Origin: Escherichia phage PCM001
DNA length: 33,766 nt
Sequence record: OR529306
Reading direction: 5' to 3' (one strand)
The translations under genes were made by a program, and so were the position numbers. Of the stretch, positions 6,507 through 33,087 are shown piece by piece. Every line of letters begins with the position of its first letter. Position 1 is the first letter of the stretch. Below the pieces are notes generated by a model. That model saw only the letters and a program-made list of their open reading frames with translations. It did no database searches and had not been told where the DNA came from.

Positions 6507-6967
6507 TAATAAAGGTCCTCTGAATAAAGTTCTTTCTCACTTCCACCGCGTTCAATACGTACCTGTCCAGCATACGTTGCAATAATCATTGCTTCTTCAC
6601 GAGTCCAGTAATTAGAGTATTGGTCGATAAAGCCTTGGTCGTCACCACAAACTTGTTGCGAGACTAATTGAGGACTAACTATATCAAGTACTTCAGCCAT
6701 ATCTTTAGAGTAATGACGAACTCCAGGAATAACTAGAGTTCCACCACTCTTCAATTTAAACCTATTAGCTGCACATACTATAACACGTTGAACTTTTTGG
6801 TCATTATTCCAATAGCACGTTTGCCAACAGATTTCAGGAACTTCATTCATTATATTATCAGCAGAATAATTATAACCATAGGACTGAAATTTTTCTGCTA
6901 GACTTTCAGGAGTCTCACGAGACAAGGCCAAATCTAATAGCTCTAAACGTTCTTTAAATGATTTCAT
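6506..6967 (-). CDS. Hypothetical protein (153 aa)
   Basis: ORF track; ATGA stop-start overlap with upstream ORF. Confidence 0.5.
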
Positions 6968-7293
6968 TTAAACCATTCCTTAATACGTTGCCAAATAGAT
7001 TTTTGTGCTTGTTTATTTACACCAATCGAACGAATAACCGGTTGTGACTGCTGATATTCTTTATAATCTTCTTTATAGATTTCGTAAGCCGCATCAACAA
7101 ATGAACTGATCGCTGCCATAAAGTTTTTACGAAGGCCAAATGGTGCGTCATTATTTTCACGAATAACCATATATTGGCCTGCTTTAATCTTCACAATTGT
7201 CCCTAAATAAGCCCCGTGGTACCAAATATCCCATCCTTCCTGAGTAGGTTCTGCACATTTACGAAGTTCGTTAATAATATTCAGCTTATTCAT
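6964..7293 (-). CDS. Hypothetical protein (109 aa)
   Basis: ORF track; SD GAGGA 7 nt upstream; 10 nt downstream of motA stop. Confidence 0.5.
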
Positions 7294-7303
7294 TATGTAT
7301 TCC

Positions 7304-7936
7304 TCACAGTACGTTAGTTACAAGGGTAATGATTTCTTTGGAAACATTAGGGAAGTCGATGTAGGTATATTTACCACCGATCTTAATCTTAACATCATTT
7401 TCAAGAGAAGTAAACAGCTTTGATTCAGTTTCTGTCATGTTGTATGCAAAGATTCTAAGAGCGCCATCTCGACGAATTTCGATCTGACGAATACCTAGAA
7501 CTCGTTTTGCAAATCGAACTTCCAAGTTACTACGGTTTTCACCAATTTCTTTAACTTCAACTTTATCTTTAATATTTTCAAAAACAAAGTTTGCTAATTC
7601 ATGCATTTCAGGAGTAACTCCACGTGCTTTTCTGGTGTTACGTTTCTGAAGAAGTTCTGGAGCATTTTCTTGAGCAAATAGGTCTGCAGCTTTTTGGATA
7701 ATATCCATTGCTTCACCTGTTGCTATAAGTCCATCACCAGATTTTTCGACTAAACCTTTCTTAATCAATACACCAATGTTAGAGTTAACAACCGATGCAT
7801 TGTATTCCGCTTCCAGAGCTTCACGGACATTGACAGCAGTGGTGAAGTTGTTCTTAATGATATAAACCATTATTGCAGCAGTTTTTTCATTCAGAGCGTT
7901 TTCAGAAGCTTTGATGATGTAAGTAACTTTAGACAT
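7304..7936 (-). CDS. motA: Middle-promoter transcription activator MotA, 210 aa
   Basis: MSKVTYIIKAS ... NSNIGVLIKKGLVEKSGDGLI matches recalled T4 MotA; length 210 vs 211 in T4. Confidence 0.9.
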   Translation of the reverse strand: MSKVTYIIKASENALNEKTAAIMVYIIKNNFTTAVNVREALEAEYNASVVNSNIGVLIKKGLVEKSGDGLIATGEAMDIIQKAADLFAQENAPELLQKRNTRKARGVTPEMHELANFVFENIKDKVEVKEIGENRSNLEVRFAKRVLGIRQIEIRRDGALRIFAYNMTETESKLFTSLENDVKIKIGGKYTYIDFPNVSKEIITLVTNVL

Positions 7937-8003
7937 TTTATTTCTCCAAATTAGTATTTGTTTTGATAGGTCTATAATATCATGTTTGAAGCAAAAGTAA
8001 ACT
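7928..8003 (-). repeat. Copy 1 of 76-bp direct repeat: early promoter, leader, RBS and start codon of motA
   Basis: identical to 8247..8322 except one base in the -10 element; contains GTTTAC, 17 bp, TATTAT and GGAGAAATAAAATG. Confidence 0.85.
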
Positions 8004-8039
8004 TTATTTTGGGCTCTTTTTCAAAAGCCCTGGTAAAAT

Positions 8040-8255
8040 TTACAAACTCATTTCTTTAATAAGGCTAATAAGTTTTGCCTTTTTAGAACGAAGCTTTTCT
8101 AAATGATGTCCATTTGAACCGCGAACCACTAAAGAATTGATTTCAACTTCTAAGAAATTTAATTCTTCAACAAGTGCTTTACGTGGAGCATTCATACCGG
8201 GTTTAACTTTACCGAAACGAGTAGTTGTGTTTTGGGTTAATTTCATTTTAGACAT
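8040..8255 (-). CDS. Hypothetical small basic protein (71 aa), MSKMKLTQNTTTRFGKVKPG
   Basis: track ORF 8040..8369 trimmed to the ATG inside repeat copy 2, which gives it the same RBS/start context as motA; the longer track ORF would run through a terminator hairpin and promoter. Confidence 0.5.
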   Translation of the reverse strand: MSKMKLTQNTTTRFGKVKPGMNAPRKALVEELNFLEVEINSLVVRGSNGHHLEKLRSKKAKLISLIKEMSL

Positions 8256-8322
8256 TTTATTTCTCCAAATTAGTATTTGTTTTGATAGGTCTATACTATC
8301 ATGTTTGAAGCAAAAGTAAACT
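8247..8322 (-). repeat. Copy 2 of 76-bp direct repeat: early promoter, leader, RBS and start codon of the small gene upstream of motA
   Basis: same sequence as 7928..8003 with -10 TAGTAT instead of TATTAT; spacing between copies 319 bp. Confidence 0.85.
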
Positions 8323-8337
8323 GTTTTGTGAGAAAAA

Positions 8338-8362
8338 TGCACAAAAGGGAGCCGAAGCTCCC
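8338..8362 (-). terminator. Intrinsic terminator downstream of gene 52
   Basis: - strand RNA hairpin GGGAGC-UUCG-GCUCCC followed by UUUUGUGCAUUUUU. Confidence 0.5.
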
Positions 8363-8438
8363 TAATCATGTTTGTCCAACCAATACAGCCAAATCACTAG
8401 TGCAGCTATTGCACCGAGAAATCCTAAGGCCAGGGCAC

Positions 8439-9764
8439 TCAAAGTGCCTCCAAGTCTTTAGTGTACTCTATAACAACATCAGTAGACTTCCAATACTCAT
8501 TTTCTTCTTTCTTAGCTTTAGCTTCTTCTGCCAGTTTACGTGCTTCGTCGGAAGTGATATGGAAGATGTTAAGACCTACCAGTTTATCGACATGTTCTTT
8601 ATACATTTCGATTTGTGCTAGCTCTTCAGTCAAAGCTTTACGAGTCTTGCCCTGAATCACAATTTCACCGTTGATAACTTTTTTGATGAAGTGTGCCTTA
8701 GCAAAAGCCAGTTTAAATGCTTTTTCAGATTCAAGGATTTTATTGTCAATACGTTTCTGAACGTAAGTCTTACGGACTTCAACAAAATCTTTGATTAAGT
8801 CAACTACGTTATCATAGACCGCTAATTTACCCTTTTCATTAATCACCGTGATGTTTTGTGAACGACGTTCGATGAGACTAAAATCTTTCATGATTTTTTC
8901 ATGACGTAGCTCTTCATCATCAGGAAGCGAGTACTCTTTACGGAACTTCACCTTAAACCCAAAGCCGTGTTCACCACAATCATCTTCCCATGAGATTAGA
9001 CCTTTGTCTTCCAACGGGTCAAGAACCTTACTCACATACGTTTCACGGTCGAATTTATATGGGATTTCAGTTATCTGCATTTGAGTGCGAGATGTGAACT
9101 TATATGTTCCGTGAATCTCATAACGCCCATCAACTTCATGTACTTCACCACGGAATTCCGGGAATTCAACTTTTGGCTTAGTGACATTTTTACCTTGAAG
9201 AGTTTGTAATACAGCCTTTTTGACTGATTTAAAACTATGAGGCAGAATATTTGTTGCGTAACCGGTTGCAATACCAGAGACGCCATTCAAAAGAACTGTC
9301 GGAATAATAGGAAGATAGAATTTTGGAGGAATGTGTTCTTTATCTTCATGGGCTGGAGCATATTCAGTATCTTTATATACGTTATAGAAATTTTTACTTA
9401 CACGAGCAAAAATATAACGAGATGCTGCAGCTTTTTGGACTGTTCGAGAACCAAAGTTGCCTTGGCCATCTAACAGTGGATAGTTGTTGTTCCATGTGTT
9501 AGCCATTAATGCACCTGCATCTTGTGCAGAAGATTCACCATGGTGATAACCTAAATCTGCAACACCGCCTGCAATTGACGCAAGTTTATGAAATTTTTCT
9601 TTATTACCACGAGCCAAATCTAATGCACGATGAACCACAAAACGTTGAACCGGCTTAAATCCATCAATCATGTTTGGGATTGCACGGTTTTCAACGGTGT
9701 ACATCGCATATGCCAAGGCTTCGTTATCAATAATACTTTTTAGATTACGAGAATTCAATTGCAT
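8439..9764 (-). CDS. 52: DNA topoisomerase II medium subunit gp52, 441 aa
   Basis: MQLNSRNLKSIIDNEALAYAMYTVENRAIPNMIDGFKPVQR matches recalled T4 gp52 (GyrA-like N-terminal region). Confidence 0.9.
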   Translation of the reverse strand: MQLNSRNLKSIIDNEALAYAMYTVENRAIPNMIDGFKPVQRFVVHRALDLARGNKEKFHKLASIAGGVADLGYHHGESSAQDAGALMANTWNNNYPLLDGQGNFGSRTVQKAAASRYIFARVSKNFYNVYKDTEYAPAHEDKEHIPPKFYLPIIPTVLLNGVSGIATGYATNILPHSFKSVKKAVLQTLQGKNVTKPKVEFPEFRGEVHEVDGRYEIHGTYKFTSRTQMQITEIPYKFDRETYVSKVLDPLEDKGLISWEDDCGEHGFGFKVKFRKEYSLPDDEELRHEKIMKDFSLIERRSQNITVINEKGKLAVYDNVVDLIKDFVEVRKTYVQKRIDNKILESEKAFKLAFAKAHFIKKVINGEIVIQGKTRKALTEELAQIEMYKEHVDKLVGLNIFHITSDEARKLAEEAKAKKEENEYWKSTDVVIEYTKDLEAL

Positions 9765-10831: not shown

Positions 10832-10859
10832 TTTGTGTTCCTCATATTTTGATAGGACT

Positions 10860-10889
10860 ACTATACCATAATCCTACCTTGTTGTAAAC
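10860..10889 (-). promoter_or_regulatory. Early promoter
   Basis: - strand GTTTACA, 17 bp, TATAGT followed by AGTCCTATC. Confidence 0.5.
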
Positions 10890-10891
10890 AA

Positions 10892-10999
10892 TTAAATTAC
10901 ATTAAAATATGTTAAAGCCAACCATGTTCCAGTGAACGAACATGCGATGTAAAAACCCGTATCACAAATTGCTCTTAGTACAATAAGTGCATTTTTCAT
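10892..10999 (-). CDS. Micro-ORF, hydrophobic peptide (35 aa)
   Basis: MKNALIVLRAICDTGFYIACSFTGTWLALTYFNVI; ATGA overlap with upstream micro-ORF; SD GAGGT; not in ORF track. Confidence 0.35.
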   Translation of the reverse strand: MKNALIVLRAICDTGFYIACSFTGTWLALTYFNVI

Positions 11000-11082
11000 A
11001 AGTACCTCAATGCAATTGAAAATATTATACAAATCATAGGGATACTAAGCAACCATATTCCGATCCACATTTTAGAGCTCAT
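10996..11082 (-). CDS. Micro-ORF, hydrophobic peptide (28 aa)
   Basis: MSSKMWIGIWLLSIPMICIIFSIALRYL; ATGA overlap with stop of 11079..11342; not in ORF track. Confidence 0.35.
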   Translation of the reverse strand: MSSKMWIGIWLLSIPMICIIFSIALRYL

Positions 11083-11342
11083 ATCTCAACTTCCGCGAGT
11101 TCCATATATCCTTTGTTGATAACCTCTTTAAGGTCTTTAGAAAGAATAACACCGAAATGGTCGTTCATATGTCCATTAACCAGACGAGTTATTTCGGCTT
11201 CAGATGACATATAAGGCACGTCTGAGTCCCAATGAGATAGACCCAAATGGGTATAAATCATCCCTTCGTCATCTGCAGTGTTGTACATTGAAACAAATTC
11301 GCCTGTTACTTTATGTTTTGCGTAGAAAAATTTAAATTTCAT
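11079..11342 (-). CDS. Hypothetical protein (87 aa)
   Basis: ORF track; early promoter at about 11350-11400 upstream. Confidence 0.5.
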   Translation of the reverse strand: MKFKFFYAKHKVTGEFVSMYNTADDEGMIYTHLGLSHWDSDVPYMSSEAEITRLVNGHMNDHFGVILSKDLKEVINKGYMELAEVEI

Positions 11343-11410
11343 GATGTTATCCTCTTTTAGATAGGACTACTATATCATAGTCCTACTTAGTTGTAAACAC
11401 TTTTATGAAA

Positions 11411-11968
11411 TTAAAGTTGAAGATACCACCCGTTGTAGTTGCTCTTGCGGACGATTTTCTTTAGGTCTTCATGGTCTCCCACGAACTTTATAGAATAAGA
11501 GAAGACGTCAGGTGAGGTTTCTTTGGCATCTAATATAATAATGCAATCTGCGACTCGATGGTTCAAGAAGGGCCCTATATTGATTCCATTACCACCCGGA
11601 TAATCACCACTGTAACCTGTGGTAACCGAAATCCATTTAGAATCTATCTGGTGTGTCTTGACTTCTACACGAATTCCACAATACTTTGGATGGGCTAACA
11701 CGTCCCATGCATACGTGTACGGGTCTTCTACGTCTTCAATACCTTTATTAACATATCCGTCTAGCCAATTTGCTACTACATACTCTGCAAAGACCGCAAC
11801 CTTACAACGTCGAACTACATCTTCTTTGTTTTGGTCAGGATTTTGGCTCAGGGAATACCGAGCAGTGTCAGCAATCTTCACCTTCATTTCACTAGTCAAA
11901 AACTCATTCGACAGGATAAATGTCGGAAGATTCTTCAGTCTCAACAGTCCCAAGTTCGTCTTTACCAT
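11411..11968 (-). CDS. PD-(D/E)xK-like nuclease, denB-like by position (185 aa)
   Basis: track ORF 11411..12031 trimmed to ATG at 11968 with SD AGAGGT; D...EVK pattern (WDVLAHPKYCGIRVEVKT); lies between ndd cluster and rIIB where T4 has denB, and the trimmed length equals T4 DenB as I recall it. Confidence 0.4.
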   Translation of the reverse strand: MVKTNLGLLRLKNLPTFILSNEFLTSEMKVKIADTARYSLSQNPDQNKEDVVRRCKVAVFAEYVVANWLDGYVNKGIEDVEDPYTYAWDVLAHPKYCGIRVEVKTHQIDSKWISVTTGYSGDYPGGNGINIGPFLNHRVADCIIILDAKETSPDVFSYSIKFVGDHEDLKKIVRKSNYNGWYLQL

Positions 11969-21047: not shown

Positions 21048-21503
21048 TTAAGCTTTACGAGGAGACACATAGCGAGTGATTTCAGATTCTTTAACAACTC
21101 GGAAGTCACCTAAGAATACGATATTGTATAACTTTTCACCATCTTCAACCCATTGGTCACTAATGAAGCCACACATGGTATCAGTTGTGCTTGGATATCC
21201 GTATTCGTCGATGTAATCAAATTCTTTATCGGTCTGGAATTCAACGCCTTTGCAAAGGGCCCATTTGAACTGTACATTAGGTTCAGTAGAAGCAAAATGA
21301 GCACTCACACGAGTTTCCAGGAATTTAGGACTTACGTAAGCGTACTGAGTATCCTGACGTCCAAAACTAGGAATGATTCGAACTTTAACTTCTTTAATAC
21401 GTCCCATGCCATTTGTGCGAAGTCCGACAACTTCAACCAGACGACCTGCGGCTTTAGACCGGGATGCAGTTGATACACGCTTAATTTCACCAATAGTAAT
21501 CAT
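21048..21503 (-). CDS. Paralog family member B (151 aa)
   Basis: track ORF 21048..21566 trimmed to ATG at 21503 (MITIGEIKRV); STASRSKAAGRLVEV, FKWALC, GFISDQWVEDGEKLYNIVFLGDFRVV. Confidence 0.55.
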   Translation of the reverse strand: MITIGEIKRVSTASRSKAAGRLVEVVGLRTNGMGRIKEVKVRIIPSFGRQDTQYAYVSPKFLETRVSAHFASTEPNVQFKWALCKGVEFQTDKEFDYIDEYGYPSTTDTMCGFISDQWVEDGEKLYNIVFLGDFRVVKESEITRYVSPRKA

Positions 21504-33057: not shown

Positions 33058-33087
33058 ATAGTAACACAGTATGCGATGCTTGTAAAC
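33058..33087 (-). promoter_or_regulatory. Early promoter upstream of lipoprotein gene
   Basis: - strand GTTTACA, 17 bp, TACTAT. Confidence 0.5.

Follow-up and report, generated by a model that had tools for sequence, protein, structure and literature searches.

Near-identical control regions on either side of a small gene upstream of motA in Escherichia phage PCM001 probably mark a recombining cassette junction

Two neighbouring genes of Escherichia phage PCM001 (sequence record OR529306), motA, coding for the activator of middle transcription, and a small open reading frame (ORF) of 71 amino acids (aa) upstream of it, hereafter ORF71, begin with almost the same DNA, and the question raised by the locus is why they do. 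The window, i.e. the whole stretch of 33,766 nucleotides (nt) analysed, is that of a Mosigvirus, an RB69-like T-even phage, and the genes discussed lie on its minus strand. A repeat search of the window returned the direct repeat 7928-8003 / 8247-8322 with 75/76 identical positions and a period of 319 nt; in its extended form the same repeat covered 84 nt (7928-8011 vs 8247-8330). The repeat is probably, though not certainly, the homologous part of two PeSL-type units, each a hairpin followed by an early promoter, which bracket the small and dispensable ORF71 in the slot between gene 52 and motA, and the copies of which would recombine with each other.

Each copy comprised, in order along the minus strand, the -35 element GTTTAC, a spacer of 17 nt (16 nt when the -35 element was taken as TTTACT), TGA and then the -10 hexamer, a leader (about 31 nt) containing GGAG, and ATG TCT AAA. 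The TGA gave both copies an extended -10, and both MotA and the ORF71 product began with MSK. The homology started 1 nt ahead of the -35 element and ended with codon 3, and ORF71 and MotA had nothing beyond MSK in common. The sole mismatch (7977 vs 8296; T vs G on the coding, minus, strand) was at the third base of the -10 hexamer, which read TATTAT in the downstream copy ahead of motA (copy D) and TAGTAT in the upstream copy ahead of ORF71 (copy U). An earlier note on this DNA had described promoter, leader, ribosome-binding site (RBS) and start codon as all present twice with a single -10 difference, and that description was accurate. Copy D (GTTTAC-17-TATTAT with TGA) fits the T4-type early promoter (-35 (G)TTTAC(W), spacer of about 17 nt, TGn, -10 TAYWAT); copy U matches it save for TAGTAT, where the published consensus has Y instead of the G. 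A pattern search at <=3 mismatches found exactly these two copies in the window and 0 in 100 shuffles. The next-closest early promoters of the window were only 64-72% identical over 47 nt, and the likeness of the two copies therefore far exceeds a shared promoter consensus.

The copies were compared among 13 cassette-carrying (filled) Mosigvirus loci by three diagnostic segments, namely the spacer (A[TC]G[TC] in U type, TTTT in D type), the third base of the -10 hexamer (T or G), and the leader (AAAACAACCAAATT in U type, AAATACTAATTT in D type). Copy D was (D,T,D) in 12/13 loci. Copy U was (U,T,U) in HX01, G53, NBG1, LF82-3, Mizar and ECCR664, (D,T,U) in SA79RD, (D,G,U) in JN02 and vB_EQ1, (U,T,D) in phiEC1, ST2 and NHEP29, and (D,G,D) in the window; all four combinations of spacer and leader were found. 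The number of differences between copies U and D was 1 in the window, 2-3 in ST2, NHEP29 and phiEC1, 6-11 in the other Mosigvirus loci and 14-17 in Dhakavirus. The rare -10 G occurred in copy U of four genomes (among them the window, JN02 and vB_EQ1) but in copy D of NHEP29, and was accepted on the motA copy of NHEP29 as well as on the sole motA promoter of mar005P1. Copy U of the window was not matched in any other record of the collection (best 97.5% over 119 nt).

Copy U is thus a mosaic of its own and motA-type segments, a pattern that indicates gene conversion. The repeat of the window appears as the end point of a patchy, repeated transfer of sequence from motA to the ORF, private to a narrow lineage, and its copies are 75/76 identical because motA-type tracts cover the whole of copy U. 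Gene conversion, one of the two origins proposed earlier, holds: copy U stands 6-11 positions away from the motA copy in most relatives and is motA-type throughout in the window.

The repeat in Dhakavirus spanned the promoter only (about 41-49 nt). The Dhakavirus ORF had its own leader and the start ATGAATAAG (MNK), with leader, RBS context and start codon unrelated to those of motA. In every Mosigvirus examined, the ORF started with ATGTCTAAA behind a motA-type RBS. An old tract from motA is likely to have replaced the translation start of ORF71, because MNK and an own leader in Dhakavirus stand against MSK and a motA-type RBS in Mosigvirus. Within a 41-nt promoter core, copies U and D differed at 0 sites within JS98 and at 0 within VR5, and a site that sets JS98 apart from VR5 was altered in both copies. 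Orthologous copies differed between genera at 3-7 sites in this core, and genus-specific bases were common to both copies.

ORF71 itself was narrowly distributed. Mosigvirus genomes carried it, and orthologues with 72-78% aa identity were present in Dhakavirus (JS98, VR5, ABTNLsp5 and others), in both cases in the order gene 52, ORF71, motA and with the same spacing. Between the window and Dhakavirus, the nt identity of ORF71 was 71% (synonymous divergence, dS, 1.0-1.4; ratio of non-synonymous to synonymous divergence, dN/dS, 0.16-0.27) and that of motA 72% (dS 0.9-1.0; dN/dS 0.23-0.27). From these values ORF71 is judged to be a real gene under purifying selection that has stood alongside motA since before the Mosigvirus/Dhakavirus split. 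The recent duplication put forward in the earlier note is excluded, because ORF71 has diverged as much as motA and the two-copy layout with an orthologous ORF occurs in two genera; nor did the locus have the paralogous coding sequence, absent from moderately distant relatives, of a recent tandem segmental duplication.

Population counts were based on the GenBank phage collection; a pattern scan of IMG/VR gave 9 loci only. The collection held 154 Mosigvirus-level records, delimited by MotA identity and independently by a control region elsewhere in the window. ORF71 was carried by 76/154 (filled), and about 78 were empty, with a two-piece match spanning 284-289 bp. A shorter query was used for this count, the repeat having let empty sites reach 80% coverage, which made a figure of '153 full-length' matches misleading. 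The interval between gene 52 and motA was 185 nt in RB69 vs 502 nt in the window, and their alignment showed one clean 319-nt gap with a single repeat copy retained. NBG1 (filled) and mar005P1 (empty), two phages placed in one species, were identical at 279/280 and 374/380 positions of the flanks. The single copies of empty genomes were different chimeras, namely (U-like,T,D) in RB69, (D,T,U) in F2 and (D,G,U) in mar005P1; in phiC120, JQD51, p000v and L011, also empty, the single copy was (U,T,U). Empty and filled genomes were interleaved in a neighbour-joining tree of the flanks (479 nt, about 1% divergence, no support values). As ORF71 was already present before the two genera parted, the empty allele more likely arose by deletion, through recombination of one copy with the other. 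As to the filing of two of these records, F2 is listed as Tequatrovirus and ST2 as Kagunavirus; both loci were Mosigvirus-like.

The contents of the slot varied across genera, and gene 52 and motA bordered it in all T-even genomes examined. It held a 75-aa ORF in T4-type contigs and Dhakavirus IME281 (168 phage records carry this ORF), a 73-aa ORF in a Dhakavirus-like contig, a 217-aa plus a 51-aa ORF in Kanagawavirus IME523, and a 211-aa ORF in phiR1-RT, and was empty in T4, RB69 and one Dhakavirus-like contig. A T4-type locus from IMG/VR (L013) was compared with IME281 (L017, JS98-type) over the region -480 to 0 relative to motA. The 75-aa ORF was identical at 225/228 nt (98.7%), the hairpin and promoter that follow it at 93/105, and motA at 271/410 (66%). 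In T4-type genomes with the 75-aa ORF, motA now stands behind a Dhakavirus-type promoter. Judged by these identities, this is a clear case of one ORFan cassette transferred between genera. Within Dhakavirus, the same hairpin-plus-promoter unit stood behind either ORF71 or the 75-aa ORF. HY126 (L029, 740-800) had a Dhakavirus-like gene 52, small peptide and terminator stem, was Mosigvirus-like from the base after the stem-loop onwards (promoter, leader, motA), and had an empty slot; it reads as an inter-genus chimera. In L014 (IMG/VR; -364 to 0 from motA), a 73-aa ORF (MKTLNINS...) stood behind a JS98-type promoter copy, and a second promoter copy or stem-loop 2 ahead of motA was not recognisable there.

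A stable hairpin preceded each repeat copy (Table 1), with 25 nt between stem-loop 1 and GTTTAC of copy U, and AAAATAAA between stem-loop 2 and GTTTAC of copy D. The two stem-loops and their AT-rich tails were unrelated in sequence. Stem-loop 1 had a U-rich tail, the related records NBG1 and SA79RD annotate a rho-independent terminator there, and T4 has an equivalent hairpin ahead of its motA promoter; it looks like the intrinsic terminator of the gene 52 transcript. Stem-loop 2, conserved in Mosigvirus and Dhakavirus alike with compensatory change at one pair (G-C, A-T in JS98, G.T in VR5), was found together with the promoter after a different ORF in IME281 and carries a terminator annotation in SA79RD. 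As stem-loop 2 has no U-run, transcripts from the upstream promoter probably read through into motA as well. The upstream flank of copy U, CTCACAAAACA-GTTTAC, matched the flank of the T4 motA promoter, TTCACAAAACG-GTTTAC. The T4 layout has a single copy (hairpin, TTCACAAAACG-GTTTAC, early promoter, GGAG, then ATGTCTAAAGTAACTTACATC); MSK is therefore taken as the native start of motA, and the hairpin-proximal place as the ancestral position of the motA promoter.

The preferred explanation would accommodate these observations as follows. Each unit would consist of a hairpin and then a T4-type early promoter (-35, TGn, -10), with the homology extending through the leader, GGAG and the first three codons, and ORF71 and motA would each be expressed as an early gene from its own promoter. 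Non-reciprocal exchange, i.e. gene conversion, would put motA-type sequence patchwise into the upstream copy. An old tract would have replaced the RBS and start of the ORF (MNK to MSK) in all Mosigvirus genomes, and younger tracts the spacer and/or leader in some lineages and the whole copy in the window. Reciprocal exchange would excise exactly one 319-bp unit and give RB69-type genomes without ORF71, and the same slot would take other ORFan cassettes in other T-even genera.

Several points weigh against this explanation. Promoters and terminators were called by consensus, and copy U scored under the threshold of a simple promoter scan owing to its G. The interleaving in the flank tree of 479 nt is suggestive, not decisive. 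Copy D was almost invariant, yet most empty genomes carried a U-type leader, which would also fit a mobile block of ORF71, stem-loop 2 and copy D inserted into an old empty allele. Recombination between co-infecting phages, and not repeated intragenomic conversion, could account for some of the mosaicism, and strong purifying selection on the promoter alone would explain some of the similarity between copies U and D. A control pair of the window (10847-10906 / 11356-11415; 83% identical), which brackets an 87-aa ORF (11079-11342), lay in a region intact in 152/154 Mosigvirus records. Promoter pairs do not always show such polymorphism, and an extension of the explanation to promoter pairs in general was dropped on this account. 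The hairpins were unrelated and the homology lay downstream of them, whereas the crossovers of RB49/phi1 were mapped to the stem-loop or to the bases immediately behind it, ahead of the promoter; the shared stem-loop sequence at the crossover, a defining detail of the original PeSL, was absent here. As an observation apart from these, further early-promoter-like repeat pairs stood around small ORFs at 21497/22054 and 32304/32615, and all pairs ranged from 60 to 83% identity.

The near-invariance of copy D, stem-loop 2 and ORF71 in filled genomes, as expected of a moving block, and the frequency of empty sites interleaved with filled ones would also suit a recent re-acquisition of the ORF71 cassette by homologous integration (from a mini-circle or a co-infecting phage) into an RB69-type empty site, with the near-identical copies as the two halves of the integration scar. 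Integration of PeSL mini-circles is a published model, and insertion does occur, as the passage of the 75-aa cassette across genera shows. Such an origin is nevertheless unlikely for the window, the closest relatives of which (NHEP29, ST2, JN02 and vB_EQ1) were all filled and had stepwise intermediates of copy U, which fits conversion in place. ORF71 has moreover been in position since before the Mosigvirus/Dhakavirus split, and a single crossover would not itself equalise the copies unless donor and recipient were already identical.

A functional coupling, in which ORF71 and MotA are needed simultaneously in matched amounts and selection keeps promoter, leader, RBS and start identical, would agree with the complete early promoter kept in both copies in two genera, with the purifying selection on ORF71, with the MotA-box-like motif in both spacers, and with leaders that both have a GGAG Shine-Dalgarno sequence and an A-rich tail, like the RegB-cleaved leader of T4 motA (PMC2988021; PMC3014915). 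It is quite improbable even so. About half of the Mosigvirus records, the laboratory phage RB69 included, were without ORF71, the leaders differed at 6-11 positions in most filled genomes, and the Dhakavirus signals were unrelated; there is therefore no conserved need for identical control regions. In addition, unrelated ORFs stood behind the same promoter copy in other phages, and the near-identity was private to the window. Stoichiometric co-expression, which had been offered as a possible implication of the repeat, is accordingly unsupported, as the identity is exceptional among relatives, the ORF is dispensable and unrelated ORFs use the same position. Co-regulation of the two as early genes, of the kind typical of T-even early genes generally, is plausible. 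A recent tandem duplication of the motA 5' region, an assembly artefact or a chance resemblance of two early promoters deserves almost no credence, even if 75/76 identity alone would suggest a young duplication, since the ORF in between is old and has been kept by two genera, the layout recurs in 76 independently assembled phage records (which disposes of the artefact named in the earlier note), ORF71 and MotA share only MSK, other promoters are <=72% identical and 0 shuffles match.

Regarding expression, T4 MotA is an early product and its mRNA is cut by RegB in the Shine-Dalgarno sequence (PMC2988021). The shared leader sequence GGAGAAATAAA agreed with the RegB strong-site consensus GGAGRAYARAA (PMC3014915) at 9/11 positions (GGAG plus 5/7 of those following). 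Immediate-early activity of the two promoters would be expected from the early character of T4 MotA (PMC2988021), and by the same analogy it is reasonable to suppose that transcription of the two genes begins right after infection and that they are silenced alike. A structured 5' untranslated region was rejected, as folding of the leader RNAs was no better than that of shuffles (z=-0.5 and -0.8).

Both spacers carried TTTTGCTTCA, a full match to the MotA box (a/t)(a/t)(a/t)TGCTT(t/c)A; the Dhakavirus copies read TTCTGCTTTA. The window had 8 strict early-promoter matches, of which only these two carried the box, and 11 MotA-box matches in total vs 3.4 expected. The sequence of the box is like that of MotA-dependent middle promoters, but its distance to the -10 is 7 bp (12 +/- 1 in middle promoters), i.e. 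5 bp too close, and it lies within the spacer rather than replacing the -35, which is intact. A middle promoter was rejected on this spacing and on the complete -35/-10 promoter that surrounds the box, and sequence inspection found no alternative TAnnnT at the right distance from it. An autoregulatory loop, in which MotA would bind its own early promoter and the ORF71 copy and shut both off, and which the cassette would have spread into Tequatrovirus genomes with a Dhakavirus-type motA promoter, is rather unlikely. The reverse-strand TGCTTTG in the spacer of the T4 motA promoter was dropped as support for such a loop; a promoter of the window (33058-33087) shares GCATACTGTG-TACTAT, and the TGCTTTG stretch may simply be a recurrent early-promoter sequence.

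Table 1. Features of the motA region of the window
Feature	Coordinates	Strand	Remarks
arn.4-like gene	6964-7293	-	ORF plus Pfam/phrog searches
motA, activator of middle transcription	7304..7936	-	Pfam MotA_activ E=6e-39, MotCF E=2e-8; phrog_1345; 98.6% aa identity to RB69 MotA
Repeat copy D	7928..8003	-	-35 7997-8002; MotA-box-like TTTTGCTTCA 7987-7996; TGA + -10 TATTAT 7974-7979; GGAG 7944-7947; ATG TCT AAA 7928-7936 for motA
319-bp unit (ORF71, stem-loop 2 and one repeat copy)	8004..8322		Missing in RB69-type genomes; register inside the repeat arbitrary
Stem-loop 2, GGGCUUUU-GAAA-AAGAGCCC then AAAAUAAAG	8011..8030	-	No U-run; fold -13.2 kcal/mol, z=-3.5; stem-loop half of the putative downstream PeSL
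ORF71, 71-aa ORFan	8040..8255	-	phrog_6200 E=3e-40; start = MSK codon
Repeat copy U	8247..8322	-	-35 8316-8321; MotA-box-like TTTTGCTTCA 8306-8315; TGA + -10 TAGTAT 8293-8298; GGAG 8263-8266; ATG TCT AAA 8247-8255 for ORF71
Stem-loop 1, GGGAGC-UUCG-GCUCCC then UUUUGUGCAUUUUU	8347..8362	-	Fold -12.9 to -15.5 kcal/mol, z=-3.4; stem-loop half of the putative upstream PeSL
Candidate 26-aa hydrophobic peptide (M)SALALGFLGAIAALVIWLYWLDKHD	8362..8442	-	Read from sequence; TTG start overlaps gene 52 stop (TTGA); position of T4 motA.1
Gene 52, DNA topoisomerase II medium subunit	8439..9764	-	Pfam DNA_topoisoIV E=5e-78; phrog_551; annotated gene 52 in RB69, JS98, T4; upstream border of the slot

At the position of the 26-aa candidate (Table 1), T4 has the 49-aa motA.1, annotated 'predicted periplasmic protein', and JS98-type phages have a 34-aa hydrophobic ORF; across genera, the hydrophobic character and the location were kept and the sequence was not.

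The ORF71 protein had no match in Pfam, PADLOC or PDB sequence searches, and just 8 clusters were found among 5.8 billion proteins searched. A sequence match to uL23 (E=0.44) was set aside as noise. The AlphaFold model (mean predicted local distance difference test score, pLDDT, 76) had a disordered basic tail (residues 1-22) followed by antiparallel helices (23-44 and 50-70). Two Foldseek searches with this model returned the Bp7 orthologue and generic helical hairpins only, apart from uncharacterised proteins of 66-68 aa in phage RB27 and Klebsiella phage P545, which matched marginally (27-32% identity, E about 0.1). A weak match to phrog_4535 was also seen. Going by the model, the RB27 and P545 proteins and phrog_4535 may be distant ORF71 homologues in other T-even genera. 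A 109-aa extended ORF (8040-8369) was rejected as a real gene, as it spans the terminator and the promoter and all orthologues are 71 aa long. The NHEP29 record (L030, 482-811) annotates the 109-aa read-through ORF in place of the 71-aa gene, and the JN02 and ATK47 records leave the 71-aa gene unannotated.

The locus is a well-resolved natural example of the gain, loss and swapping of small early genes in T-even phages. With about 150 sequenced relatives, apparent intermediates of promoter-to-promoter conversion can be read directly, along with several deletion chimeras and one inter-genus cassette transfer. The type of gene shuffling is known and its place is new, directly upstream of motA and not only in blocks of dispensable ORFans, and even the motA promoter can be exchanged for one that arrives with a cassette. 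For annotation, the true start of ORF71 is the MSK codon; some GenBank records give the 109-aa read-through ORF or no gene. Insertions between gene 52 and motA appear to be tolerated in nature, which suggests this interval as a site for engineering, and the repeat can mislead assemblers and whole-genome aligners.

Among known systems, the motA gene of T4 itself has been described with an early promoter and a RegB-cleaved leader (Uzan et al. 1990, as cited in PMC3014915; reviewed by Hinton 2010, PMC2988021). The hairpin, the flank ...CACAAAAC(A/G)GTTTAC, the early promoter, GGAG and ATGTCTAAAGT(A/T)ACTTACATCATC are common to T4 and the window, and the layout from hairpin through promoter to ATGTCTAAAGT is the same. 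T4 differs in having a single copy without ORF71, and its spacer and leader are unrelated to those of the window and without a forward match to the MotA box.

T4 is also known to lose DNA that lies between short direct repeats (Singer et al. 1982; Mosig et al. 1998; both cited in PMC2839356). As far as these deletions are summarised there, they are similar in that the intervening DNA is lost precisely and one copy is kept, with GGGC...GCCC hairpins near the endpoints. The loss depends on T4-type recombination, described in the same source as very active, <50 bp of homology being enough (PMC2839356). Those deletions were laboratory mutants; the present one is a natural polymorphism at about 50% frequency across the genus.

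The closest parallel is provided by the PeSL cassettes of RB49/phi1 (Arbiol et al. 2010, PMC2839356) and of T4/PST and KVP40/nt-1 (Comeau et al. 2014, PMC4122927), where the units recombine, flanked ORFans are deleted, inserted or exchanged, and excised circles have been detected (PMC2839356, PMC4122927). Neither of these two papers mentions motA, RB69 or JS98, and a literature search beyond them found no description of the locus. As in those cassettes, a hairpin and an early promoter stood on each side of a small ORFan, with both folds stable (Table 1) and an A/T-rich stretch before the promoter. Close relatives differed in having the ORFan or not, the breakpoints fell within the repeated units and one chimeric copy remained, different ORFans were swapped at one site between phages, and copy D fitted the promoter consensus of the T4/PST type, TTTACW-N17-TAYWAT (PMC4122927). 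The present locus differs in that the homology includes promoter, leader, RBS and three codons, and because of this extent recombination here would also rewrite the translation start of the ORFan. It is motA that follows the cassette, and the slot, with the conserved genes 52 and motA as its borders, seems not to be part of an ORFan block, although its own content varies across genera. Graded conversion tracts can be traced here across many genomes. On balance, the locus is best filed as a further PeSL-type cassette junction, or a mildly variant form of one, which recombination appears to keep homogeneous and occasionally to collapse.

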